DNA from: an archaeon
Lineage (GTDB): Archaea; Nanobdellota; Nanobdellia; SCGC-AAA011-G17; GW2011-AR17
Reading direction: 5' to 3'
DNA length: 64,000 nucleotides
Assembly: GCA_018653605.1 (NCBI GenBank)
Contig: JABHYY010000041.1
Coordinates: 2,874 to 66,873 of the forward strand
A model generated the notes under the pieces. It did no database searches, was not told the DNA's origin, and saw only the letters and a list, made by a program, of their open reading frames with translations. This document shows positions 6,550 to 40,310 of the stretch, piece by piece. A program made the translations under genes and the position numbers. Position 1 is the first letter of the stretch. Each line of letters starts with the position of its first letter.

Positions 6550-8217
6550 TTACATTTGCTCTACTGTTTCTATGCCTAATAACCACAAACAAGAGCCCAT
6601 TATATTGATGTAGGAATCAACAAGAATATATCTTGCTTTTTGTAACTCATCATTCTCTGCTTTTATTACAGGACATAGTTCATAGAACCTATTAAATGAA
6701 GAAGCAAGATTGTAAGCATATACTGTAATTGCATGAGGGCTATAAGTCTTTGCTGCTTTCTCTAATACAGAAGATAATTCACTAAACTCCCTTACTAGCC
6801 CTTGCTCTGCAGGATGTATTAAAAGATTATAATTGATCTTAGAACTCTTTTTTAATTGTTTTTTTATCTTCTTAGCCCTTACTAAAGAGTATTGTAAATA
6901 AGGACCTGTCTCACCCTCAAAAGATATTGATTCTTTAGGGTTAAATGTAAAATCCTTATGTGCTGAATGTTTTAATAAGTAAAATTTTAATGCAGATAAA
7001 GAAATCTTTCTAGCTAATTCTTCTGTTTTTGTCTTGCTTAATTTGTTTCTTTTTTCTACTTCTTTCCTTGCAAGATTAAACAAATCATCCATAAGGTCGT
7101 CAGCATCTACAACAGTACCTTCTCTAGATTTCATTTTACCTTCTGGAAGAGATACCATACCATAACTTAAATGGTAACAGTCTTTTGCATATTTGTAGCC
7201 TAGTAGATCTAATATTTTGAAAAGGACTTTGAAGTGATAATTCTGTTCGTTCCCAACTACATAAACAGATTTGTTGAATTTGAATTCATTGTATTTTAAA
7301 TTGGCAAGATAAAGGTCTTGAGTAATATATACAGAAGTTCCATCTGCCCTTAGAAGAATCTTTTCTCCTAACTCTCCTCCAAGGTCAATCAGAGTTGCAC
7401 CTGTATCATCTTTCTTAAACAAACCTTTTTTTGTGTTCTCAAGTACTATCTCCTTTCCTTTAAAGTAAGTTTTACTCTCATAATATTCTTTATCAAATTT
7501 TATCCCAAAAGTTTTGTATGTTTCTTTGAACCCTTCAAAAGCCCACTTGTTCATCTTTTTCCAAAGCTTGATTGTTTCTTTGTCTCCTAGTTCCCATTTC
7601 CTTAACATCTCTCTTGCTTCATCTTCTAGCTTTGGTTCTTTTTTTGCTTTTTGTGCAAATAAAACATAATAATCCCCTATGAAATGGTCTGATTTCTTGT
7701 TTGGTTCTTTGCCTTTACCCCACTTTTGGTAGGCTAACATAGACTTACATATATGTATCCCTCTATCATTGTTTAGGTTTAATCTTTTAATTTTGGAACC
7801 TTGAGATTCTAAAATTCTTGAAACTGATTCTCCTAGTGCCATATTCCTTAAGTGGCCTAGATGTAAAGGTTTGTTTGTGTTTGGAGATGGGAATTCTACA
7901 AGAGTTGTTTTCTTATTGTTATTTTTGAAAGCGTATTTCTCTTTGGTTGTTTGCTTTAGAATTGCTTCACTTCTTTTTGTTTTGTTAACAAAGAAGTTTA
8001 AGTATGGACCTGTTGCTTTGATCTCTTTAATATTAGTATTGGGCTTGATTTTTTTTGCTAAATCTTGTGCTATTTGCTGGGGAGCCTTTTTGTAAGCTTT
8101 AGCTAATGTAAAACAAGGTAAGGCATAATCTCCCATTTCTGGATTAGATGGAACTTCTAATAAATCTTCTTTTATTTCTTTTTTTAATAATTTTAATATT
8201 TCTTTTCTGAAATCCAT
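6550..8217 (-). CDS. argS: Arginine--tRNA ligase
   Basis: Class I HIGH-type motif PSPNTNKPLHLGHLRN, KMSKS-like GKMKSREGT, C-terminal DALR-like anticodon-binding region. 555 aa. Confidence 0.85.
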   Translation of the reverse strand: MDFRKEILKLLKKEIKEDLLEVPSNPEMGDYALPCFTLAKAYKKAPQQIAQDLAKKIKPNTNIKEIKATGPYLNFFVNKTKRSEAILKQTTKEKYAFKNNNKKTTLVEFPSPNTNKPLHLGHLRNMALGESVSRILESQGSKIKRLNLNNDRGIHICKSMLAYQKWGKGKEPNKKSDHFIGDYYVLFAQKAKKEPKLEDEAREMLRKWELGDKETIKLWKKMNKWAFEGFKETYKTFGIKFDKEYYESKTYFKGKEIVLENTKKGLFKKDDTGATLIDLGGELGEKILLRADGTSVYITQDLYLANLKYNEFKFNKSVYVVGNEQNYHFKVLFKILDLLGYKYAKDCYHLSYGMVSLPEGKMKSREGTVVDADDLMDDLFNLARKEVEKRNKLSKTKTEELARKISLSALKFYLLKHSAHKDFTFNPKESISFEGETGPYLQYSLVRAKKIKKQLKKSSKINYNLLIHPAEQGLVREFSELSSVLEKAAKTYSPHAITVYAYNLASSFNRFYELCPVIKAENDELQKARYILVDSYINIMGSCLWLLGIETVEQM

Positions 8218-8235: not shown

Positions 8236-8718
8236 CTAATTATTAAGCTTTTTGTAGATCTTTATGAAAAGATCGTCTTCAATATTTAATCCTAATTGTA
8301 AAAGAGTGTTTGCTAACTCCTTTGCTCTATCTTTAAGCTCTGTTTTTTTGAACCTGAAGTTGTATGCTTTGTTTAATGTATAGTTGCATAGAAAGCCCTC
8401 ATTTAACTCAAAATTGAAAGAAGGTACTAGGTAAGGATTTAGTCTGAACTTTATTGGTTGGAAATATCTTTTGTTCTTTTCTATCCCATGGTTCTTTAGC
8501 TCGTGTTCTATTAGATCTTGTATAATTGTTCTATAGGGAGTTAGTTTAAAGTATTTTATTGGTTTTTCAAAAGGTATACTGTCTGTTTTCTCTAGTCTAG
8601 TGCACTTTCCAAGGTATTTTGTAGCTCTTTGTCGGGTTGCTTTTTTCCTTTTATACCATTTGTTCTCAATGGCATATAAATAGCTGTTTCCCTTGATAAT
8701 TTTTGTTCTTAGAAACAT
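8236..8718 (-). CDS. Hypothetical basic protein
   Basis: 160-aa ORF with a K/R-rich N-terminus. No recognised domain. Confidence 0.4.
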   Translation of the reverse strand: MFLRTKIIKGNSYLYAIENKWYKRKKATRQRATKYLGKCTRLEKTDSIPFEKPIKYFKLTPYRTIIQDLIEHELKNHGIEKNKRYFQPIKFRLNPYLVPSFNFELNEGFLCNYTLNKAYNFRFKKTELKDRAKELANTLLQLGLNIEDDLFIKIYKKLNN

Positions 8719-8759: not shown

Positions 8760-9206
8760 TTAGGGGTTTTTCCAGTCGTCGACAAATATTTCATGATAAC
8801 CATCAGGGAGTTTTGTTATTATCCTCGATATGCCTGCGTTGATTATCATCCTTTTACAGAAGACACAGGGTTTTGATAAAGCAACTGTTTTGTTCTTAGT
8901 GTTCTCTCCATACATGTAAAGTGTTGAACCTATCATCTGTTCTCTTGGTGCGAAAATGATTGCGTTTGCTTCTGCATGAACTGATTTGCACAGTTCATAC
9001 TTTTCACCTGAAGGAATGTTTAAGTTTTCTCTTTCACAGAAACCAATGTCTATGCAGTGAGGGATGCCTGAAGGGGTTGATGCCCAACCTGTGCTTATGA
9101 TCTTATTATCATTTACTATGATTGTTCCAAACTTTCTTCTGATGCAAGTAGATTTTTGTGCTACTTCTCTTGCAATGTTTAGATAAAATTCATCTTTGTT
9201 TCCCAT
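8760..9206 (-). CDS. dCMP deaminase (cytidine/deoxycytidylate deaminase family)
   Basis: Zinc-ligand motifs HAEANAI and PCVFCKRMI (H-A-E ... P-C-x-x-C). 148 aa, typical of ComEB/dCMP deaminase. Confidence 0.8.
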   Translation of the reverse strand: MGNKDEFYLNIAREVAQKSTCIRRKFGTIIVNDNKIISTGWASTPSGIPHCIDIGFCERENLNIPSGEKYELCKSVHAEANAIIFAPREQMIGSTLYMYGENTKNKTVALSKPCVFCKRMIINAGISRIITKLPDGYHEIFVDDWKNP

Positions 9207-9267
9207 GTTTTAATATATGTATTGAAAGTATAAAAAGATTTATATGGTTTGAAAAAAAATCAAAGTT

Positions 9268-11562
9268 ATGAAATTTCCTGTTGTTGATGCTTTTTTGATT
9301 GAAAGGGGTTCTGGAAAGATTGGTGTTTGTTGTAACACTCTTTCTCCTGACTCTGTTGAGGTTGAGAGTGATGATGTTGCTGTGATTGGTAGATTGGTTG
9401 TAAATAGAGATGGGGCTGAAAGAATGATTATTAACTCTCTTGTTCATCCTCAGATTGAATATTTAATTCTGTTTGGTGAAGAGAGTGCAAGTTTTTGTCC
9501 GAGCACTAATCTATTGTTAGCTATTATGGATGGTTATGAAGATGGTAGAATTAAAGGAGGGAGAGGATTGGCTGCACTCTATCCTAACATAAGTGTTGAA
9601 TTGTTAGAAAAATTTAAAGAAAATGTTATTGTTTTACCTATGTTCTTGAATAAAGATACAAAAGATGTTGTTGGAAAGTATTTGGATTGGTTAAAAGGAA
9701 AGGTTGGTGATGAAATTTATAGTAAATTGGTTGAAATTAATTCTAAGAAAAAAATTTATTTTGATTCTTTGAATGAAATGGTTGGATTGATCGAAAAAGT
9801 TCCTGCTAAAAAAATTAAGGAATTTGCTTTAGATCCTAAAGAGTTTCAACATTTGCAACCACCTATTATAGTTTTGGAAGGGGATGATGAAATTCAAGAT
9901 GTTAAATTTAAAGTTGTTAGAGTTGATGATGGGATCTTGTTGAATATATATATAGGTGAATGGGTTTATTCTTTGAAAGGGAATGATAGTTTTTTGATGG
10001 CTTATTCCTTAAATGAATTTTTGAATAAAAAAAAAGTTAAGTTAAATGTTGTTGATTGTTTGTTAATTGGTACTGAATTGTCTCGTATTGAAGTTGAGAT
10101 TAGAAGTGGTATCAAAAGTGAAGGCTTTGTTCAATCTAATCTATCTGAAGGAGAGGTAATTCCATTGCTTAAGGAAACTGATTTGAAAGCTGATAAAGAG
10201 TATTATTATAAGGTTGGTTTGAAAGATGATAAGGTTTATGTACAAAGTTTAGCAAATGATAATTCTAAAGAGGCTTATGAGTATCGATGTGATAAATTGT
10301 GGCCTTTGGTTCAAAAGATTGCTGAAGATTCTAGGTTTGAAGATTATGAACAAAAAACTTTGCATTGTATTGATGTTGGGATTGAAATGGCTAGGGCTTG
10401 TATTGCTTTGAATAATGGAATGAACTATTTTCAAGACTTTAGGAATTTGTTTAAAGTGAATAAAGATAAACTGCCTTTATTGATTGTTAAAGGGAATAAT
10501 TTCTTGGGTACACATCAAAAGATAATTACTGAATTGTATACAAAAGGGTTAACTATGACTCACCCAGATAATCATAAAGGTACAATGAGGTCTGGTTGTG
10601 TTCTTGCTGTGTATAGAAATTCTGATAAGGTGTTTGATGTAATGCCTGATGTGTATGCTTCTGATAATCAAAGTACTTCTGAAATGAGAAGGTTGTATAG
10701 GGAACAGTTGTTGTCTGCTGATTGTGCTGGAACTTATACTTATGGTGAAAGAACTAGAAAGTATTTTGGGAAGGATCAGTTAGTGGAAGCTGTTAGGGTT
10801 CTGAAGGAAAAGAAAGTGTTTGTTGTTCAAAGGTTTGATTTTAATGAGGATATGGGTGTAAAGGAAGTTGATGGGAATTTGAAGTTTACTAAAGACCCTT
10901 GTTTAACTCATGATATTTATTTTGTGTTGGGTGGGAAGTTACATAGTCTTCATATAGCAAGAGCACATAATATTGTTAATGCTTATCCTGAGAACCTTTT
11001 TGGGTTGCATGATTCTTATGATTCATTTGTAGCTAAGGAATTAGGTGTGGAGTTAGGTGATTTGTTTATGTTGTCTAATAGAGCAAATATTTTACTTTTG
11101 ACTGAAGAGCAGAAGACTCGAAAGTTTATTGCTGAGGTTTCTAAAGAAATGAAAGATCTGGAAAGTCCTGTTGGCCCTAACAAAGAGTTTGGAAAAGGTA
11201 TTAGTTATGGTGAGTTTGTTATGGAAGAGGTTTTTGAAGTTGAACATAGTGATTTGGAAAGGTTGGAGAATTATAATGGTGAAGATATTATTGCGAGAGC
11301 TATTAAGTATTTGAAATTGAAAGGTAATTGTCATAATAATCCTATATTAGGTACTTATGATCCTAGGAAAGGTTCTTGTGGAAGGTTATTATTTTTTCAA
11401 GCTAATGAAAGAGGAGGAAAGTTGTTTGCAAGTGCTGTATTCTTAGGAAAGGGAGAGAAGGATAAAGAATTATGTGATTATATTGCAACAAAGTACAAAA
11501 AAGAGTTGGGTGTTGAATTAGGTGATGTCTTTATGTTTCACATTGGAGTTGAAAATGATTAA
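9268..11562 (+). CDS. Fusion protein: N-terminal MtrA-like (H4MPT methyltransferase subunit A homology) domain + central region + thymidylate synthase (ThyA/dCMP-hydroxymethylase) fold domain + C-terminal extension with partial duplication
   Basis: Residues about 10-130 align with the MtrA N-domain as recalled (IGVCCNTLS..., [36 protein letters not shown]..., [24 protein letters not shown]). Residues about 390-650 align with E. coli ThyA: YGERTRKY vs [35 protein letters not shown] vs [50 protein letters not shown] vs [35 protein letters not shown] vs CDLEVGDFVWTG. The catalytic Cys is conserved (codon 10900-10902). The ELGVELGD(L/V)FM element recurs at the extreme C-terminus. Confidence 0.6.
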   Translation: [764 protein letters not shown]

Positions 11563-12181
11563 AGTTATTGGATTTGATTTAGATCAGACTTTGTATCCAA
11601 AATCTTATCATATTGATGAAGCTATTCAGCTTTATATTTATGAAAAAATTTCTGAATTTAAAAAATGTAGTTTAGAAGAGGCTAAGGAATTGTTTTGTAG
11701 TTATTATCCTGAATTAAGTGGTAGTAAGGCTTTGATGAAGTTAGGTGTGCCCGATGCAAGGAATATTATACAAGAGGCTTTGGAGAGAGCTGATATTGAC
11801 AAATATTTAGAACCTAATGAAGAATTGAAAAAATTGTTGCTGAAATTGAAAGATAAGTATATTGTTGATTTGATTACTGGTTCTAATAAAGGAATTGCTT
11901 TGAAAAAGTTAGCAAGGTTAGATATTCCTATTGAATTGTTTAATGTTGCGATCACTGGAGAGATTGCTAAATCAGATGGAACGGCTTATAGAGAATGGTT
12001 AAAAAATTATGGTTATGATGCTTCTGAGTTTCTTTATATTGGAGATAGAAAAAGTACTGATGTTGATGTTCCTAAAGAATTAGGAATAAATTCTTTTTTG
12101 GTTAATGTGACTAAATTTGATGAAAATCTTGAAATTAAGCAATTTAAATCTATACTTGATATAGGCGAAGTTCTACTATAG
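11555..12181 (+). CDS. HAD-superfamily hydrolase (phosphatase)
   Basis: Starts MIKVIGFDLDQTLY, which carries HAD motif I DxDxT. The ATG at 11555 overlaps the upstream stop (ATGATTAA). The track start at 11522 is probably too far 5-prime. Confidence 0.7.
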   Translation: MIKVIGFDLDQTLYPKSYHIDEAIQLYIYEKISEFKKCSLEEAKELFCSYYPELSGSKALMKLGVPDARNIIQEALERADIDKYLEPNEELKKLLLKLKDKYIVDLITGSNKGIALKKLARLDIPIELFNVAITGEIAKSDGTAYREWLKNYGYDASEFLYIGDRKSTDVDVPKELGINSFLVNVTKFDENLEIKQFKSILDIGEVLL

Positions 12182-12196
12182 AAATGCTTTTAATAT

Positions 12197-13114
12197 TTGA
12201 AGTCAGAATTGTTTTATATGGCTCCTAATATTACTTTTGAAAAAATTCTTCCAAAAGAAGACATTCTTAAGATGCTTAATAATATTGTTTTTAGAGGAGT
12301 TTATGATTCTGAAGGAAACCCTTTGAGGCCTTATGAAGGAGCTAAATTTTCAATGGTCAAGATCCTACCACCTGAAAGACCTACATCTTTTCCTAGAATT
12401 ATGCATAATTTTCAGCAACATCCTTTGTTTACTGCACAGCCTACTATTTATGCTGATCAAACAGAGATTATGGATAATGTTGATAATTTTTTGAAAACAA
12501 TTGATAAGAGGATTTTTAATATTGGTTTTGAAGGTGTACAATATTATTGGGAAGGTAGGGGAAGATTTCATATTATCCCTCCAATTATTGAAAAACATGT
12601 TTACCCTTTGAAAGATGGTTTTTTAGATTTTGAAAAAATGTCTAAGAGATTTGAAGGAGCATTTGTTAAAGATGCTAAAGGTGAGTTGCATCCTTTGTTT
12701 GAAAAAGTAATTAGAGATTTTTATATTGACCATGGAAGTAAGGTCAGTTACATGAATGTATTTCATCATAATGCAGAATTGATTAATTATGGCTTGAGGT
12801 TTAATGGAAATCATGAATTTTTTATTATTTGTGATGGTAGCCATAGAATAGATTTTGCTTTAGAACATTTAGATGAACCAACTAATGCTATTGTTGTTGA
12901 ATCTGATAATCTTCTCCCATACTATGCTTTTCCTATGCCCTTTAGACCTGTAACAAGATTGACTAGTAAAAAAGCTGAAAGAATGTATCCAAGATTAGAA
13001 AGAGATAAAGTGCATCTTCTTAATTCTTTTATTAAAAAGGTGTTACATTATGATTGGGTTAAGGGAGGATTACATGTTAGCTCATTACGAAATAAAAAAT
13101 TTCAACCTTGGTAA
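12197..13114 (+). CDS. ParB/sulfiredoxin-like (DGxHR motif) domain protein
   Basis: HEFFIICDGSHRIDFALEHLDEPTNAIVVE at about 12826-12900 resembles the ParB-like nuclease/Srx motif (LIDGHHRxxAAxxLGLxxIPAIVV). The N-terminal 200 aa are unassigned. Confidence 0.5.
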   Translation: MKSELFYMAPNITFEKILPKEDILKMLNNIVFRGVYDSEGNPLRPYEGAKFSMVKILPPERPTSFPRIMHNFQQHPLFTAQPTIYADQTEIMDNVDNFLKTIDKRIFNIGFEGVQYYWEGRGRFHIIPPIIEKHVYPLKDGFLDFEKMSKRFEGAFVKDAKGELHPLFEKVIRDFYIDHGSKVSYMNVFHHNAELINYGLRFNGNHEFFIICDGSHRIDFALEHLDEPTNAIVVESDNLLPYYAFPMPFRPVTRLTSKKAERMYPRLERDKVHLLNSFIKKVLHYDWVKGGLHVSSLRNKKFQPW

Positions 13115-13928
13115 GTTAAAAGAAAGTTTGGATAGGTGTTGGTTGAATAAGGGTAAGTTTCATTCTAGTTCTGTTGCAATAACTTCAAATGGTGAATATT
13201 ATTCTGGGTTAATGGAATCAAAAACTCATTTGTTGGATATAAGTTCTGAGCAAGGTGCTTTGGTTTGTGCTGTATCTTGTAAAGATCCTCATGTTAAGGA
13301 AATTGTAACTTTGGTTGCTGGAGAGTTTAGTTTGAATCCTATTATTGTTAAGGTGTTATGTGATCATGTTCGAAGAACTGGAACTTATATTAAATATAAA
13401 GTTTACAATTTGGAAGGTTCTGAGTTGTTGAATTTGGATGTGATGGATACTTATTATAGGCCTGAGATTAAGGTGTTAGAAAAAATTAGTTCCTGGGAAA
13501 AAAGAGAGTGTAAAAAGAAGTATGATGAGTCAAAAGATTTGAAAGAGCAATTAAAAGAGTGTGCTCTTTTGGGTATGGAGACTCATTTTTCTTCAAGTAC
13601 AAAAACATGTTATGGGGGTTCTGTTTTATCTGGTGGTTGGATTTATTTTGGTGGAGTGTACAGTAGTTTTGATCATAGGATGAATTTGCATTCTGAGATG
13701 AGTGCTTTTTTTTGTGCTTTGGCTGATGGTTGTAAGGATGTTGAAGCTATTGGATTGGTTAGTACTAAATTTGTTTCAGAAGTTCCACAAATGTGTGGGT
13801 GTTGTAGGCAGTTTTTTTCTGAAATAAATAAAGAAGTTATGTTTTATGGATTTAGTATGGATGGTACAAAAGTGTTTGAGAAAAATTTGAAAGAGTATTT
13901 GCCTTCTGCTTGGGATTCTAATATTTAG
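13050..13928 (+). CDS. Tandem cytidine-deaminase-fold protein (degenerate N-terminal copy + intact C-terminal CDA domain)
   Basis: C-terminal half: [11 protein letters not shown] ... [13 protein letters not shown] ... EYLPSAW aligns with B. subtilis Cdd (CAERTAL ... PCGACRQ ... ELLPGAF). N-terminal half keeps the fold spacing ([21 protein letters not shown]) but lacks the Zn ligands. Overlaps the upstream gene by about 65 nt, so the start is uncertain. Confidence 0.6.
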
Positions 13929-34463: not shown

Positions 34464-36293
34464 ATGAGGTGGTACTTAATTATTTGTTTTATAGTAATAT
34501 TAATGTTTAGTGTTAGTGCTCTTCCTGCACAGCCTTTTACTTTTGTTTGTGATGGTGAAATTTGTGATGAGGAAGATAGTGGGGATTATGAAATTCTTTT
34601 TAATACTGGTGGAAGAGGTGACTCCTATGCTGAAACAGAAGATGGTTATCCTGTAATGCTTGATAAGAAAAAGATTTATTTTGCTGAGCAGGGTTCTGAT
34701 GGGAAGTTAAGACCTACAAGGCATAAGATGGGAACTGCTGATCCTGAAAAGTTGAAGTTAATTAAAATTGCTGAGATGGATAGAAAAAGATTGATGGAGA
34801 TACCACCTGAGTTCCGTCCTGAAAGACCTTTGGATGATAGGCAAGAAGCTTTGAGGAAAAAGATTTTGCGTGAGAGAAGGTTGATGGAAGAGAACAGTGT
34901 TACTGGTGGGGTGGTTGCTGAGGAAGGAAGTTCTTTGAAAGTGTTAGTTGTGTTTATGGAATTTTCTGATCAAAAACATTCTGTTGATTTTGATTCTTTT
35001 GATAGTTATTTAGAAGGGTTGTCTGATTATTATTATTCTGAATCTAATGGAGATTTATTGTTAGATTTTTATCCTGTAAAGAATTGGTATTTGGCGCAAA
35101 ATGAGATGGGTTATTATGGTGGTGATTATGAAAGTAAAGCGGATGATCTGGTTGATGAGGCTGTTAATATGATTGATTTGTCTGGTGGTTATGATGATGA
35201 TGGAGATGGTGTTTTAGATGGGCCTTTATTAGTTATACATGCTGGTGCTGCTGATGAAACTGTTGGAGGTAATACTGATTTGATTTGGAGTTTTTATTCT
35301 TCTACTGGAGGTTTGGAATCAAATGGTGTTGAAGTGTTGGATTATGTTCTTTTGAGTGAAGAGTTTGTTCTTGGTACTGCTGCACATGAGTTTGGACATT
35401 TTTTGGGTTTGCCTGATTTGTATGATACTGATCCTGATGATGGTGAGTCAAAAGGTTGTGGTTTTTTTTGTTTGATGGGTTATGGTTGTTATCTTAGTGA
35501 GATTTCTGGGTTGAGTCCTTGGAGTCAATATTATTTAAGTTGGGATGGTGGGTTGCTTGAGGTTGATGGTTCTGGTACTTTTGAAATTGGTTATAGTGGT
35601 TCTTTGAAAGTTCCTATTGATGTTAATGAATATTTTTTAGTTGAGAATAGAGAAGAAAGTTCTTTTTTTGGTGAAAAAGTTGGTGGAGTTTTTATTTGGC
35701 ACATTGATGAGGCTGTTATGGAAGAACAAGGTAGTTGGATGGGTTGTAAAGGTTCTAGATTGGATTGTAATGTTGTTAATGCAAATGAAGTTCATAAGTT
35801 AGTTGATTTTGAAGAGGCTGATAATTTTGGATTGGATGAGGATAGTGATGTGAGTGATTATGGTGGTGAGGATGATGTGTGGGGTAGTAGTGCTGTATTT
35901 TATTCTGGTTCAGCTCCAAGTACTTTTACTTATGCTGGCGTTGAAAGTGGAGTTTCAATTGAGGTTTTGAGTTCTATTGGAGAGTTGATGGAGGTAGGTG
36001 TTAGTTTTGGTGGTGAGGAGAGTGTTGCTGAAGGAGTAAGTGGTGTTTCAAGTCCTGAGGTTAGTGGTGAAGATTATTCTGATGATCGTGATGTTATGCA
36101 GTTTGCTGGTTCTATTGATGGTGAAGATGTAGATGATGTTCCTTTTGAAGAAGAAGAGGAAGTTAGTGGAGATAGGGATGGTACTACAACTTCTGAAGAA
36201 GGTGGTTCTAATTTGTTAATATGGATAATTATTGGGGTTATTATTTTAATTGTTATTTCTATTATTAGTATTTTGTTTTTGTCTAAAAGCTGA
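34464..36293 (+). CDS. Secreted, membrane-anchored zinc metallopeptidase (HEFGHFLGLPD motif; M6/M7-like)
   Basis: Signal peptide MRWYLIICFIVILMFSVSALPA. AAHEFGHFLGLPDLYD is a HExxHxxGxxD zinc motif as in snapalysin/InhA-type peptidases. C-terminal poly-Glu then a TM helix (LLIWIIIGVIILIVISIISILFL). Confidence 0.7.
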   Translation: MRWYLIICFIVILMFSVSALPAQPFTFVCDGEICDEEDSGDYEILFNTGGRGDSYAETEDGYPVMLDKKKIYFAEQGSDGKLRPTRHKMGTADPEKLKLIKIAEMDRKRLMEIPPEFRPERPLDDRQEALRKKILRERRLMEENSVTGGVVAEEGSSLKVLVVFMEFSDQKHSVDFDSFDSYLEGLSDYYYSESNGDLLLDFYPVKNWYLAQNEMGYYGGDYESKADDLVDEAVNMIDLSGGYDDDGDGVLDGPLLVIHAGAADETVGGNTDLIWSFYSSTGGLESNGVEVLDYVLLSEEFVLGTAAHEFGHFLGLPDLYDTDPDDGESKGCGFFCLMGYGCYLSEISGLSPWSQYYLSWDGGLLEVDGSGTFEIGYSGSLKVPIDVNEYFLVENREESSFFGEKVGGVFIWHIDEAVMEEQGSWMGCKGSRLDCNVVNANEVHKLVDFEEADNFGLDEDSDVSDYGGEDDVWGSSAVFYSGSAPSTFTYAGVESGVSIEVLSSIGELMEVGVSFGGEESVAEGVSGVSSPEVSGEDYSDDRDVMQFAGSIDGEDVDDVPFEEEEEVSGDRDGTTTSEEGGSNLLIWIIIGVIILIVISIISILFLSKS

Positions 36294-36347: not shown

Positions 36348-39300
36348 ATGGCTGAATTTTCTGAGAGAATAGGGAAGTATTTGGAGACGATTAATGTAGA
36401 GGTTCTAAAGTGTTATGATATTGCTAATGAAGCCAAAAGCAAAGGATTTGACCCAAATAAGAGGGTTATGATGCCTCTTGCTAAGAACATGGCAGAGAGA
36501 GTAGAGGGTTTGATTGGTTCTGTTGCTCCAGAGATTTTGGGTAAGGGTGTGCCTAAGAGGATTCAAGAGCTTGAGAAAGAGTATGGGATGCAGGATTGGA
36601 GAGTTGCTCTCAAAATTGCTGAAGAGGTTGCTCTTGAAAAATTTTGTAAGTTTGAAGATAAAATTCGTGCAATGGAGATTGGTATTAGGACAGGGTTTGC
36701 ATATGTTACTGTTGGTGTTGTTGCTTCACCTTTAGAAGGTTTTATTGGATTAAAAGTTCGTGAAAGGATGGATGGACAGGGTGAGTATCTTGCTTTGATT
36801 TATGGTGGTCCGATTCGTAGTGCTGGTGGAACTGGTGCTAGTGTTTCTATTTTGATTGCTGATTATGTTAGAAAGATAATGGGGTATAAAGAGTATGATG
36901 CAACTGAGAAGGAAGTTAAAAGAGCTTATTCTGAATTGTGTGATTATCATGAGCGAGTTACTAACTTGCAGTATTTTCCTTCTGAAGAAGAGATAAAGTA
37001 TTTGGTTGAACATTTGCCTATTCAGTTAGATGGTGATCCTTCTGAAAAATGGGATGTTTCAAATTATAAAGATCTTTCTCGTCGTGTTGCTAATAGAATT
37101 AGTAATGGGTTTTGTTTGATTACTGCTGAATGTTTGGGTTTGAAAGCTCCTAAAGTTTGGAAACAATTGGCTAAGTGGGGAAAGGACATGGATATGGAAC
37201 AATGGAATTTTATGAAAGATTTTGTTGATTTACAAAAAGAGGTTAGGGCTCGTGGTGTTAAGGTTAGTAAAAAAGTTGAAGCAAAATTAAAGCCTGATAC
37301 AAATTACATTAAAGATTTGGTTGCTGGTCGTCCTGTGTTTACTCATCCTATGAGAAATGGTGGGTTTAGGTTGCGTTATGGTCGTGGTCGGGTTTCTGGT
37401 TTTTCTGCTGATAGTGTTAATCCTGCAACAATGGTTGTTAGTGATGATTTTATTGCTGTTGGTACACAGTTTAAAGTTGAAAGGCCAGGTAAAGCAACTG
37501 TTGCAAATGTTTGTGATACTATTGATGGGCCAATTGTTAAATTGAAAAATGGTTCTGTTGTTTGTTTGAATACTTATGAAGATGCTCGGTTGGTTGCGAA
37601 AGAAGTTGATGAAATAATTTATCTTGGTGATTTGTTAGTGAACTATGGTGATTTTTTGGATAGAGCACATAAGTTGATCCCTTGTGGTTTTGTTGAAGAA
37701 TGGTGGGCTATGCTTGTTGAGAAAAAAATAAGTGAAGGTAGTCAAAGTATTGATGGTGTTGAAGATGTGATTAAGTTCCCTCTGAAAAATAGATTAAGTT
37801 TAGATCAAGCTATTGAATATAGTGAGAAGTTAGGTGTTCCTTTGTATCCAAAGTATATTTATTTCTGGGATTCAATTTCTGTTGATGATTTTAAAAAATT
37901 GTATCTTGTTTTGAAGGATTCTTCTTTTGATGGAATGAAGATGGTTGTTGCTGATCTTTCTGTGAAAAGAAGTTTGGAGTTGATTGGTTGTGAACATAAG
38001 TTGGTTGGTGATGAACATTTAATTATTGATGATGCTAGAGCTTTGGTTTTCAATCTTGGTGGGTTTGAGAAAGAGTTGGTTGTAAAGGATGATGTTTTGG
38101 AGATGGTGAATTCTTTGTGTAAGTTTGAAGTTAAAGATAAGTGTGGAACTTTTGTTGGTGCTCGGATGGGTCGACCTGAAAAAGCTAAGATGAGAAAGAT
38201 GAAAGGTAGTCCTCATGTTTTGTTTCCTGTTGGTGATGAGGGTGGAAGGTTGAGATGTTTCCAGAGTTCTTTAGAGGCTGGAAAAGTTTCTAGCAATTTT
38301 CCTTATTATATTTGTGAGTGTGGGAAGCAAACAATTTATCCTGTTTGTGAAAATTGTGGTAAGAGAGGGAAGCAAAAATTTTGGTGTAGAGGTTGTAAGG
38401 AGTTGAAGGATGAAGAAGAGTGTGAAAAACATGATAAGTGTTCTAAGTCTGTTTATCAACAGATTGATATTAAACATTATTTTTATAAGGCACTTGAGGT
38501 GATTGGTTCTCGTCAGTATCCTAGTTTGATTAAAGGTGTTCGTGGTATGAGTAGTGTTGGAAAGATTCCTGAACATTTGGTTCGTGGTATTTTAAGAGCA
38601 AAAAATTCTGTGCATGTGAATAAAGATGGAACTATTCGGTATGATATGATTGAATTGCCATTGACTCATTTTAAACCTAAGGAGATTGGAACTCCTATTG
38701 AAAAATTGAAAGAGTTAGGGTATTTGAAAGATGTTTATGGTGAAGATTTGGTTAATGATGAACAAATTTTGGAGTTGATTGCACAGGATGTTGTTTTGCC
38801 TGCACCTGTTGATGCTCCTGAACAAGGTGCTGATGAAGTTTTGTTTAGGGTTGGTGGGTTTATTGATGATTTGTTGGTTCATTTGTATAAAATGGATCCT
38901 TATTATAAGTTTGAAAAGAAAAGTGATTTGATTGGACATTTGATTGTTGCAATGAGTCCGCATACTTCTGCTGGTATTGTTTCTCGGATAATTGGTTTTT
39001 CTAAAGCTCAAGGTTTGTATGCTCATCCTTTGTTGCATAGTATTATGCGTAGAGATTGTGTGCATCCAAGTACTGAATTGGTTATTGGTGAAGACAAAAA
39101 ATTAGTTAAAATTGGAGATTATGTTGAAGATTTGATAAAAAGGGGTGCAAAAACAAAAAGAATTGATCTGGTTGGCACTTTGTCTGTTGAAAATATTGAT
39201 GATGTTTGTGTTTATGGTGTTGATTCTAAAACTTTTGAGTTTAAAGAAAAAAAAGTTAAGTCTTTTATTAAAGGACCTGTTAACAATAAATGGGTTGTTG

Positions 39301-40310
39301 TAAAATCTTTGAAGGGGAAGGAATTTGTTATGACGCCAGATCATAATCACCTTTCAATTGTTAATGGAAACTTTAAAATTATTAAGGCTAAAGAGGTTTC
39401 TGTAAAGGATAAGTTGATTGTGTGGGATGGAAAAGTGTTGTCAGAGCAAATAGTTGAAGTAAGTAGTTTATCTGACCCTGTGAATAGTTATTGTTTGGAT
39501 GTTGAAGATGAAGAGTTGATTGAAAAGAGTGTTCTTTGGGGAGATAATATAATTAATCTTAGATGTGATGGTGATGAAGCAGGGTGTATGTTGTTAATGG
39601 ATTGTTTATTGAATTTTTCAATGAAATATTTGCCTAACACTCGAGGGATTAGTCAGGATGCTCCTTTGGTTTTAACTTCTAGGTTAGTTCCTTCTGAAGT
39701 TGATGATATGGTGTTTAATATGGATATTTGTGATCATTATCCTTTAGAGTTGTATGAGGCTGCTGAAGAGTATAAGTATCCTTGGGATATTAAGATACAT
39801 ATTTTAGAGAATGATTTGGGTACTGAGAAACAGTATGAAGGTATGATGTTTACACATGATACTTCTGATTTTAATAATGGTGTGTTGGTTAGTGCGTATA
39901 AGACTTTGCCTTCAATGAGGGAGAAAGTGTTGGGTCAAATGGAAGTTGGTCGGAAGATTCGTGCTGTTGATGTTGATGATGTTGCTCGGTTGGTTATTGA
40001 AAGGCATTTTATTCGTGATATTAAAGGTAACTTGCGTAAGTTTTCTCAGCAAGGTTTTAGATGTGTAAAGTGTAATGAAATTTATCGTCGTCCTCCTTTA
40101 GCTGGAAAGTGTTTAGCTTGTTCTGGAAAGTTAGTGTTTACAATTGCTGAGGGTTCTATTTGTAAATACTTACAGCCTGCATTGGATCTTGCTAAGAAAT
40201 ATAATCTTCCTGCTTATTTGCAACAGAGTTTGGTTTTGCTTAAGAATAGAATTGAAAGTGTGTTTGGAAAAGATCCTGAAAAGCAAGAAGGTTTGGGTAA
40301 GTGGTTCTAG
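36348..40310 (+). CDS. polC: DNA polymerase II (PolD) large subunit DP2, with intein-like insertion
   Basis: 1320 aa. Conserved DP2 N-terminus (MAEFSERIGKYLETINVEVLKCYDIANEA...), a Zn-finger cluster (CECGKQTIYPVCENCG...), the catalytic-region motif ...HSIMRRD | insertion | LRCDGDEAGCMLLMDCLLNFS, and C-terminal Zn-binding (CVKCNEIYRRPPLAGKCLAC). Confidence 0.9.
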   Translation: MAEFSERIGKYLETINVEVLKCYDIANEAKSKGFDPNKRVMMPLAKNMAERVEGLIGSVAPEILGKGVPKRIQELEKEYGMQDWRVALKIAEEVALEKFCKFEDKIRAMEIGIRTGFAYVTVGVVASPLEGFIGLKVRERMDGQGEYLALIYGGPIRSAGGTGASVSILIADYVRKIMGYKEYDATEKEVKRAYSELCDYHERVTNLQYFPSEEEIKYLVEHLPIQLDGDPSEKWDVSNYKDLSRRVANRISNGFCLITAECLGLKAPKVWKQLAKWGKDMDMEQWNFMKDFVDLQKEVRARGVKVSKKVEAKLKPDTNYIKDLVAGRPVFTHPMRNGGFRLRYGRGRVSGFSADSVNPATMVVSDDFIAVGTQFKVERPGKATVANVCDTIDGPIVKLKNGSVVCLNTYEDARLVAKEVDEIIYLGDLLVNYGDFLDRAHKLIPCGFVEEWWAMLVEKKISEGSQSIDGVEDVIKFPLKNRLSLDQAIEYSEKLGVPLYPKYIYFWDSISVDDFKKLYLVLKDSSFDGMKMVVADLSVKRSLELIGCEHKLVGDEHLIIDDARALVFNLGGFEKELVVKDDVLEMVNSLCKFEVKDKCGTFVGARMGRPEKAKMRKMKGSPHVLFPVGDEGGRLRCFQSSLEAGKVSSNFPYYICECGKQTIYPVCENCGKRGKQKFWCRGCKELKDEEECEKHDKCSKSVYQQIDIKHYFYKALEVIGSRQYPSLIKGVRGMSSVGKIPEHLVRGILRAKNSVHVNKDGTIRYDMIELPLTHFKPKEIGTPIEKLKELGYLKDVYGEDLVNDEQILELIAQDVVLPAPVDAPEQGADEVLFRVGGFIDDLLVHLYKMDPYYKFEKKSDLIGHLIVAMSPHTSAGIVSRIIGFSKAQGLYAHPLLHSIMRRDCVHPSTELVIGEDKKLVKIGDYVEDLIKRGAKTKRIDLVGTLSVENIDDVCVYGVDSKTFEFKEKKVKSFIKGPVNNKWVVVKSLKGKEFVMTPDHNHLSIVNGNFKIIKAKEVSVKDKLIVWDGKVLSEQIVEVSSLSDPVNSYCLDVEDEELIEKSVLWGDNIINLRCDGDEAGCMLLMDCLLNFSMKYLPNTRGISQDAPLVLTSRLVPSEVDDMVFNMDICDHYPLELYEAAEEYKYPWDIKIHILENDLGTEKQYEGMMFTHDTSDFNNGVLVSAYKTLPSMREKVLGQMEVGRKIRAVDVDDVARLVIERHFIRDIKGNLRKFSQQGFRCVKCNEIYRRPPLAGKCLACSGKLVFTIAEGSICKYLQPALDLAKKYNLPAYLQQSLVLLKNRIESVFGKDPEKQEGLGKWF
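39057..39557 (+). mobile_element. Hint-domain (mini-intein-like) insertion in PolD DP2 catalytic motif
   Basis: About 167 aa inserted between RRD and (LR)CDGDE. It starts with Cys (CVHPSTELVIGEDKKLVKIGDYVEDLI, block A-like), contains VMTPDHNHLSIV...KDKLIVWDG (block B TxxH) and a block F/G-like YCLDVEDEE...SVLWGDNIIN. No LAGLIDADG/HNH endonuclease domain is evident. The C-terminal junction is non-canonical (IIN then L-R then C). Confidence 0.45.

Follow-up and report, generated by a model that had tools for sequence, protein, structure and literature searches.

Four co-directional genes in the window (the whole stretch of DNA analysed here, 64,000 nucleotides of contig JABHYY010000041.1) make up a single metabolic cassette that is conserved in ultra-small DPANN archaea and in bacteria of the Candidate Phyla Radiation (CPR). 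They encode a fusion protein with a thymidylate-synthase-fold domain (FUS), a HAD-superfamily phosphatase (HAD), a ParB/Srx-like protein (P305) and a tandem cytidine-deaminase-fold protein (CDA2). The reading we favour, to which we give about an even chance, is that the cassette leads from deoxycytidine compounds to thymidine nucleotides (dC to dU to dT), with FUS as a ThyA-like enzyme. It is based on four observations: the genes are linked and sometimes fused, the gene context supplies dUMP and one-carbon units, FUS keeps the catalytic Cys and the counterparts of Arg166 and Asn177 of Escherichia coli ThyA, and CDA2 has one intact zinc site.

The genome scan (one genome per species, gene order determined by tblastn) found 53 loci, 11 in DPANN archaea (Woesearchaeota, Nanoarchaeia and Iainarchaeum) and 42 in CPR/Patescibacteria, two of the latter on short contigs that carry another label. 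Full-length homologues of FUS (~800 residues, 38-87% identity) number 73, and those of P305 (48-70% identity) 227. The usual order, on which gene tables from independent assemblies agree, is P305, CDA2, FUS, HAD. P305 and CDA2 accompany FUS in 47 of the 48 loci with enough upstream flank, and HAD adjoins it in 50 of the 51 whose downstream flank is long enough. Across 54 independent loci the four genes nearly always lie side by side, far beyond chance. Natural fusion proteins join CDA2 to FUS (P0014 and P0021) and FUS to HAD (P0003 and P0023). The functional linkage proposed in a preliminary description of this DNA is thus upheld by very strong conservation of the neighbourhood and by Rosetta-stone fusions. 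Gene order in the window is permuted (FUS-HAD-P305-CDA2) and one locus of Nanoarchaeota (L049) has FUS-HAD alone; because the pairs stay intact in these arrangements, the lasting units are P305-CDA2 and FUS-HAD. The dCMP deaminase gene next to the cassette, which had been counted as part of the system, is adjacent in only 3 of ~55 loci (the window, L013 and L053), and we therefore regard it as an occasional helper and not as a core component.

When the window is compared with bacteria, the cassette proteins are 41-53% identical (CDA2 31-40%) and the neighbouring arginyl-tRNA synthetase (ArgRS) 28-34%, a contrast that suggests exchange of the cassette across domains between CPR bacteria and DPANN archaea. 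The ArgRS gene stands divergently upstream in the window and in 24 other loci (L003 and 23 CPR loci of the genome scan; L020, L027 and L028 are CPR examples), and in none of the remaining archaeal loci. Its low identity led us to reject a joint transfer with the cassette despite the adjacency. A viral origin was also rejected, since IMG/VR holds no copies of the cassette: the P305 profile and a short ParB-CE protein both returned zero matches there. In BFVD no viral structural relative was found.

Residues of the thymidylate-synthase-fold domain of FUS were mapped by profile alignment to E. coli ThyA, by multiple alignment with divergent relatives and by a family alignment. Cys146 and Arg166 of the E. 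coli enzyme are kept as Cys545 and Arg565, and these two residues and the motif YTYGERTR (the Tyr94-Gly motif) are invariant in 37 sequences, in agreement with the earlier proposal of a ThyA-fold domain with its catalytic Cys. Asn177 corresponds to Asn576, which is likewise invariant and is Asn in all divergent relatives. At this position of ThyA, Asn selects dUMP and Asp selects dCMP (PMC13326640); because the Asn is invariant, the substrate of FUS should be a uracil compound and not dCMP, on which the enzyme should act by Cys-dependent C5 chemistry. A full loss of the ThyA Arg126/Arg127 pair was also considered and proved only partly right, the first position being still basic in many FUS homologues.

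FUS comprises, in this order, an MtrA-like domain, a helical linker, two DUF4346-like domains, the ThyA-fold domain and a C-terminal domain. The AlphaFold2 (AF2) model (pLDDT 86.3) contains the ThyA alpha/beta fold, and its structural matches are the phage flavin-dependent 5-hydroxy-dCMP synthase 9iqc (21.6, the top match), the CMP hydroxymethylase MilA (5jnh, 18.5), bacterial ThyA (3ix6 and others, 16.7-17.6), MtrA (5laa, 15.8) and the T4 dCMP hydroxymethylase (6l18, 14.5). PF14251 (PterinBD-DUF4346) matches FUS at E 1.6e-4 and 22.8 bits, below its 29.6-bit cut-off, and scores 26.7 bits in P0014, 41 bits in the protein of L061 and 77.9 bits in P0074. The domain at residues 200-300 aligns weakly with the segment at residues 300-399 (hhalign, E 0.006 over 66 columns) and is possibly a first, degenerate DUF4346-like repeat. 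The C-terminal 140 residues show in the model the beta-beta-alpha-beta order of the ThyA core, with a weak but in-register hhalign match to the ThyA domain (E 0.0066 over 21 columns); they may be a degenerate second ThyA-like half that makes an intramolecular pseudo-dimer.

The N-terminal domain had been taken to be MtrA-like and pterin-binding. Its likeness to MtrA stands, as the MtrA model of Pfam matches residues 31-138 at 28.0 bits, above the cut-off, and an MtrA-type Rossmann fold is present. The pterin-binding part does not stand: MtrA is a cobalamin-binding subunit in which the cobalt is held by His84, hydrogen-bonded to Glu54 (PMC4915002), and this dyad is missing in FUS. Since the alignment has an invariant Phe76 in place of His84 and Ser/Asn46 in place of Glu54, canonical corrinoid (cobalamin) binding by the domain was ruled out. 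The tail-pocket residues Gly57 and Asn64 are conserved, and the domain may bind a corrinoid without a protein ligand. In contrast to MtrA, the corrinoid subunit of the methyl-tetrahydromethanopterin:coenzyme M methyltransferase, the FUS domain has no transmembrane helix, and no mtr genes were found in any locus table. A PduO-type cobalamin adenosyltransferase gene (PF01923, 1e-42) lies ~5 kb from the cassette in seven CPR loci (e.g., L048 15409-15999), which may be mere synteny or may bear on the MtrA-like domain.

The HAD protein matches HAD_2 (PF13419) at 43.5 bits against a cut-off of 23.8 and has the DxD nucleophile motif, so its first description as a HAD phosphatase was right. Its scores with TIGR01993 (pyrimidine 5'-nucleotidase, 53.7 bits against a cut-off of 142.9) and TIGR02253 (56.3 bits) both lie below the cut-offs, and we regard it as a candidate pyrimidine 5'-nucleotidase. 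A conserved 193-residue protein without a Pfam match is encoded just downstream of HAD in 14 loci (CPR, e.g., L048 11081-11662).

By its sequence P305 is a divergent, enlarged and highly conserved member of ParB-CE. Its own score with PF24392 (ParB-CE) is below the cut-off (19.5 against 23 bits), and its family profile, run against 1.84 billion sequences, reached P0272 (E 1.3e-8) and P0286 (E 8.6e-6), both genuine ParB-CE proteins with 98.6 and 118.7 bits on PF24392. P305 has the ParB/Srx-like core of the ParB/Srx superfamily (sulfiredoxin, SerK, SbnI, ParB CTPases and ParB-CE) with a DGxHR motif, which lies in register with the GGCHR motif of sulfiredoxin, and DGSHR takes the place of the CTP-binding GERR box of ParB. 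The P305 profile gave zero sequence matches in the PDB. By structure P305 comes closest to ParB/Srx proteins that use ATP or CTP, among them the free-serine kinases SerK and SbnI. P305 is a candidate nucleoside triphosphate-dependent enzyme, possibly a nucleoside or nucleotide kinase. The ParB-like assignment of the preliminary description is kept here on the sequence, but its comparison with DndB and DpdB is unsupported, because PADLOC has no defence model that any of the four cassette proteins matches at E <= 0.01. As P305 belongs to no PADLOC or PHROG family, a Dnd/Dpd-like membership was rejected; dnd or dpd genes were found in none of the loci, and PHROGs returned no match for P305, CDA2 or HAD. 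Some P305 homologues, such as P0246 (L069 7001-8869) and P0249, have an N-terminal extension of ~300 residues without a Pfam match.

The duplication in CDA2 is genuine: its two halves align by hhalign with 91.8% probability (E 7e-7), which bears out the tandem cytidine-deaminase (CDA) fold proposed at the outset. Its N-terminal half retains the Glu but has lost the zinc ligands, whereas in its C-terminal half both the HxE and the CGCCRQ motif are intact. This second half has invariant His206, Glu208, Cys241 and Cys244 and matches cytidine deaminases of the PDB (1r5t, 2.5e-12; 1ux1, 1.9e-11). The best NCBIfam score of CDA2 is 29.5 bits against a cut-off of 216. E. coli-type two-domain cytidine deaminases likewise have one active and one zinc-less CDA-fold domain per chain; in CDA2, however, the pseudo-domain comes first, the active half resembles the homotetrameric enzymes and the ribose-binding Asn/Glu pair is absent, so that CDA2 looks like an independent duplication. 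In one CDA2 homologue (P0238) the C-terminus is fused to an ASCH domain (PF04266).

For the gene context, the flanking open reading frames (ORFs) of all loci were clustered and representatives annotated. Genes for dUTPase occur in 19 loci, at varied positions and in varied orientations and in one case in an archaeal locus, and genes for serine hydroxymethyltransferase (SHMT) in 15; dCTP deaminase (DCD) is found in 3 loci, MazG in 2 and a YfbR-like HD nucleotidase in 2, and there are also Nuc_deoxyrib_tr genes. These recurrent neighbours supply dUMP and methylene-tetrahydrofolate or interconvert deoxynucleotides. The cassette lies in streamlined genomes among genes for aminoacyl-tRNA synthetases, ribosomal proteins, NusG, SHMT and dUTPase. 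A tblastn search of the window and 57 loci (~1 Mb) with approximate queries (E. coli ThyA, FolA and Tmk, Thermotoga maritima ThyX) detected neither ThyX nor FolA nor a canonical ThyA; its positive control, the ThyX of L058, was picked up only weakly.

Divergent relatives of the cassette show which of its parts recur. L061 has a ThyA-DUF4346 protein, HAD and then a ParB-CE domain fused to a dCMP-deaminase-type domain (P0273); L064 has ParB-CE, HAD, a 791-residue MtrA-DUF4346 protein and a dCTP-deaminase-like DCD gene; in L062 the gene of a 488-residue MtrA-ThyA-DUF4346 protein overlaps a ParB-CE gene; and in L068 ParB-CE is followed by HAD. The deaminase partner is thus drawn from three families (CDA type, dCMP-deaminase type and the dUTPase-fold DCD), which points to dC-to-dU conversion as the conserved need.

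On the favoured reading, HAD would dephosphorylate dCMP to deoxycytidine, CDA2 (judged by family similarity) would deaminate this to deoxyuridine, and P305 would re-phosphorylate deoxyuridine to dUMP or be a nucleotide-binding partner of the deaminase. FUS would then make dTMP by adding a one-carbon unit at C5, as its fold, residues and context suggest. SHMT would probably provide the carbon as methylene-tetrahydrofolate, and handling of the cofactor might fall to the MtrA-like and DUF4346 domains. The tetrahydromethanopterin-type carrier suggested in the preliminary description is not supported, the recurrent neighbour being SHMT. A kinase role for P305 is suggested by its ParB/Srx kinship: SerK, SbnI and sulfiredoxin, which depend on ATP or ADP, have this fold. 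This assignment of roles is the most economical because it uses all four proteins and has a precedent in Trypanosoma brucei, which lacks dCMP deaminase and supplies DHFR-TS with dUMP by the successive action of a 5'-nucleotidase, cytidine deaminase and thymidine kinase (PMC5098729). Our proposal has four activities in common with that route (nucleotidase, CDA-type deaminase, kinase and an enzyme of thymidylate synthase fold), and YfbR-like HD nucleotidases are among the neighbours too. The two differ in that the cassette genes form a cluster and some of them are fused, the proposed nucleotidase is a HAD and not an HD protein, the putative kinase would have the ParB/Srx and not the TK1 fold, and the window, unlike T. 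brucei, has a dCMP deaminase. Of the two options in the preliminary description, an unusual module of thymidylate synthesis and pyrimidine salvage fits the evidence best.

Several points weigh against this reading. TIGR03283, the model of the methanogen-type thymidylate synthase, matches residues 406-607 of FUS with E 8e-15 but only 54.8 bits against a cut-off of 174.55, and PF00303 does not match the FUS of the window, its score in the homologue P0048 being 23.5 against a cut-off of 24.3. Asp169 of ThyA is replaced by Asn568, the folate contacts Leu172 and Phe176 by Asn571 and Glu575, the 3'-OH contacts His207 and Tyr209 by Asn607 and Leu609, and Leu143 by Lys or His (position 542). A bulky Leu143 favours the methyl product and is said to exclude water in methyl-forming ThyA (PMC13326640). 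With these contacts replaced, it is uncertain which substrate sugar and which cofactor FUS uses, and even whether its product is methyl or hydroxymethyl; on the alignments, the cofactor pocket and sugar handling of FUS, and possibly its product, would differ from those of ThyA. In CDA2 the ribose-binding Asn42/Glu44 (Bacillus subtilis numbering) are absent, GCNIEN being aligned to GGVYSS. The detour through nucleotidase, CDA and kinase would be redundant here because the window already has a dCMP deaminase, and nucleotidase and kinase would not be needed in those variants in which the deaminase acts at the nucleotide level. Lastly, the short relative P0074 adjoins ThyX, so that members of the wider family are not necessarily the only thymidylate synthase of their cell.

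Compared with ThyA, including the archaeal MJ0757/TIGR03283 type, FUS is much elaborated: at 764-800 residues it has ~400 residues of extra N-terminal domains and the 140-residue C-terminal domain, and it is accompanied by ParB-CE, tandem CDA and HAD genes. The short MtrA-ThyA-DUF4346 proteins (475-490 residues; P0074 and that of L062) have the same three domain types as FUS, an MtrA-like domain without His84 and the Asn177 equivalent, and their genes adjoin ParB-CE, HAD or genes of deoxynucleoside monophosphate metabolism. DUF4346 follows the ThyA domain in the short form, whereas in FUS it precedes that domain, is probably duplicated and is joined by the C-terminal domain; in its ThyA domain the short form departs less from the canonical sequence, with RR, SAHIY and RSHD motifs in P0074. 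The architecture of the short proteins is detectable with Pfam models, and no functional study of them was found in the literature searched. P0074 coexists with ThyX in L058 (6404-10936), where two Nuc_deoxyrib_tr genes, an HD_3 gene and the ThyX gene surround it; this ThyX is unusually long (541 residues, about double length), and NDK and an SHMT fragment lie nearby.

It is unlikely, in our estimate, that FUS is a mechanistically new, single-chain pseudo-dimeric enzyme with one-carbon delivery that does not yield dihydrofolate, possibly together with action at the nucleoside level and kinases of the ParB-CE family. In that case the MtrA-like domain (with a corrinoid lacking a protein ligand, or with flavin) and the pterin-binding DUF4346 domains would deliver the one-carbon unit, and thymidine nucleotides might be made without own folate synthesis and perhaps without dihydrofolate reductase.

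A close rival of the favoured reading, somewhat unlikely in our estimate, is a division of the cassette into two enzymes, in which P305 and CDA2 would form a deaminase of dCTP, dCDP or dCMP without a nucleoside detour, the ParB-fold subunit binding or hydrolysing the cytidine nucleotide, and FUS and HAD would be a thymidylate synthase and a phosphatase of cofactor, pyrophosphate or product. Such a division would explain why the pairs P305-CDA2 and FUS-HAD survive permutation and separation, and is consistent with the fusion of ParB-CE to a dCMP-deaminase-type domain in P0273 and with the DCD of L064, which acts on dCTP. CDA2 also lacks the residues that bind the ribose hydroxyl, and the invariant Lys93, Asp97, Arg101 and Thr102 of its pseudo-domain could bind phosphate. 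However, the catalytic half of CDA2 is most like homotetrameric nucleoside deaminases, P305 has DGSHR in place of the GERR box with which ParB binds CTP, and the HAD phosphatase is given no clear role.

We consider it quite unlikely that the cassette is a pathway to a modified pyrimidine, with FUS as a hydroxymethylase or another non-methyl C5 transferase (forming, e.g., 5-hydroxymethyl-dUMP), P305 as the kinase of the modified nucleotide and HAD removing competing dTMP/dUMP as in phages with 5-hydroxymethyluracil, the outcome being modified DNA or a modified nucleotide for conflict or self-protection. The Lys or His at the Leu143 site would suit such an enzyme, but polar residues at this site are common to the whole archaeal-type branch. 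The top structural match of FUS is a phage modifying enzyme, and the phage ThyA homologues (dCMP/dUMP hydroxymethylases, RB69 gp48 9iqc) share with FUS the compact ThyA fold, the replacement of Asp169 by Asn and the polar Leu143 site, and their pathways are paired with a dedicated nucleotide kinase. Yet the phage enzymes have Asp at position 177 and use dCMP, whereas the invariant Asn of FUS points to a uracil compound. Nuc_deoxyrib_tr, a family that includes the hmdUMP hydrolase DNPH1 and MilB, is present among the neighbours, the short relative in L062 stands beside a DNA methyltransferase among small ORFs of no known identity, and in L067 (127-9624) a 199-residue ParB-CE gene is located in an apparent defence island (KAP NTPase, QatB, TatD, PNP_UDP-NB-ARC/NACHT and DNMK+DCD). 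In the cassette itself there is no glycosyltransferase, DNA kinase, aGPT-type enzyme or other gene for modification at the DNA level; it is cellular, with a housekeeping context in streamlined genomes, and the blank PADLOC, PHROG, IMG/VR and BFVD searches reported above also speak against modification. For these reasons the second option of the preliminary description, modified DNA for self-protection, has little in its favour.

Very improbable is a cofactor module that makes or recycles a pterin, flavin or corrinoid, with a YigB-like HAD, a RibD-like deaminase, MtrA/DUF4346 binders and the ThyA fold as one consumer: it could draw on the JGI label of the HAD fusions (FMN phosphatase YigB), the one MtrA-like and one or two DUF4346 domains of FUS, FolB near the cassette in one CPR locus and the PduO-type gene in seven, but YigB is merely a label at the COG level, CDA2 matches cytidine deaminases and not RibD or guanine deaminases, its place can be taken by the dC-nucleotide enzymes dCMP deaminase or DCD, and the recurrent neighbours are deoxypyrimidine enzymes.

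The features of the window are listed in Table 1. The five ORFs of the preliminary description were recovered, with three starts refined from homologue lengths and junction sequences. HAD starts at ATG 11555 and overlaps the FUS stop by 8 nt; P305 (originally a 305-residue ORF) starts at ATG 12218, which gives it the same 298 residues as P0075; and CDA2 (originally 292 residues) starts at ATG 13074, which gives it the same 284 residues as P0195 and an overlap of 41 nt with P305. The divergent spacer, put at 60 bp before, measures 61 bp and is presumed from its sequence to be the promoter region serving both directions.

Table 1. Features of the window, with positions counted from its first nucleotide.
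Feature	Position	Strand	Evidence
dCMP deaminase (ComEB/dCMP-deaminase type, 148 aa)	8760..9206	-	PF00383 56.3 bits; phrog_174 dCMP deaminase 7e-34
Divergent spacer, 61 bp, AT-rich, TATA-like runs	9207..9267	.	Sequence inspection
FUS, fusion protein, 764 aa	9268..11562	+	Profile matches, homologues, AF2 model
FUS aa 1-145, MtrA-like Rossmann-type domain	9268..9702	+	
FUS aa 200-300, beta-beta-beta-alpha-alpha domain	9865..10167	+	Secondary structure of model
FUS aa 311-390, PterinBD-DUF4346 domain	10198..10437	+	PF14251
FUS aa 400-622, thymidylate-synthase-fold domain	10465..11133	+	Cys545 codon 10900-10902 in invariant DPCLTHD
FUS aa 625-764, conserved C-terminal domain	11140..11559	+	Invariant HNN and FFQxN motifs
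HAD-superfamily phosphatase, ~208 aa	11555..12181	+	PF13419 43.5 bits; DxD motif FDLDQT
P305, ParB-CE (ParB/Srx-like) protein, 298 aa	12218..13114	+	Profile link to ParB-CE; CDGSHR motif
CDA2, tandem cytidine-deaminase fold, 284 aa	13074..13928	+	PDB profile matches; internal duplication
CDA2 N-terminal half	13074..13493	+	
CDA2 C-terminal half	13494..13925	+	
Arginyl-tRNA synthetase gene	6550..8217	-	
160-aa ORF	8236..8718	-	No Pfam match
Giant ORF, 2130 aa	20084..26476	+	Zero Pfam matches
Giant ORF, 2613 aa	26606..34447	+	Zero Pfam matches
M6 (immune inhibitor A-like) peptidase gene	34464..36293		
PolD large subunit DP2	36348..40310	+	Sub-threshold Intein_splicing match, aa 950-1025

The host of the window is an AT-rich archaeon (~32% GC), and PolD, Lon, CDC48, MutS and topoisomerase I are encoded in the window. 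The 160-residue ORF lies between the ArgRS and dCMP deaminase genes. The two giant ORFs, which are followed by the peptidase gene, may encode large surface proteins typical of DPANN. In DP2 the sub-threshold intein match splits the match of the catalytic domain in two, and this segment may be a mini-intein or a remnant of one. From 18000 to 64000 the GC skew is strongly positive (0.2-0.58) and nearly all large genes are on the plus strand; there are no tRNA genes in the whole window.

The combination had been called undescribed, and the libraries and literature searched indeed contain no description of it; in particular, the papers searched give no account of what ParB-CE does, of MtrA-ThyA fusions or of the cassette itself. 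The cassette is built from members of established superfamilies, and thymidine nucleotides, its probable product, are nothing new; the chance that the enzymology is novel is substantial. Cells cannot do without thymidylate synthesis, which is a classic drug target, and the discovery of ThyX reshaped the field; to our knowledge, only two classes of thymidylate synthase, ThyA and ThyX, are known. The locus points to a third, elaborated thymidylate solution, confined to CPR bacteria and DPANN archaea, and offers four candidate proteins: an enzyme of six domains with a ThyA fold and replaced folate contacts, a putative metabolic enzyme of ParB fold, a tandem deaminase of inverted order and a HAD phosphatase. 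Even a conservative outcome would give the ParB-CE family and the MtrA/DUF4346-ThyA fusions a function. Most members of the two large groups, CPR and DPANN, are uncultured. How they manage their nucleotides is poorly understood and is probably at the root of their reliance on hosts, and a module of the favoured kind would suit AT-rich scavengers that re-balance salvaged deoxypyrimidines.

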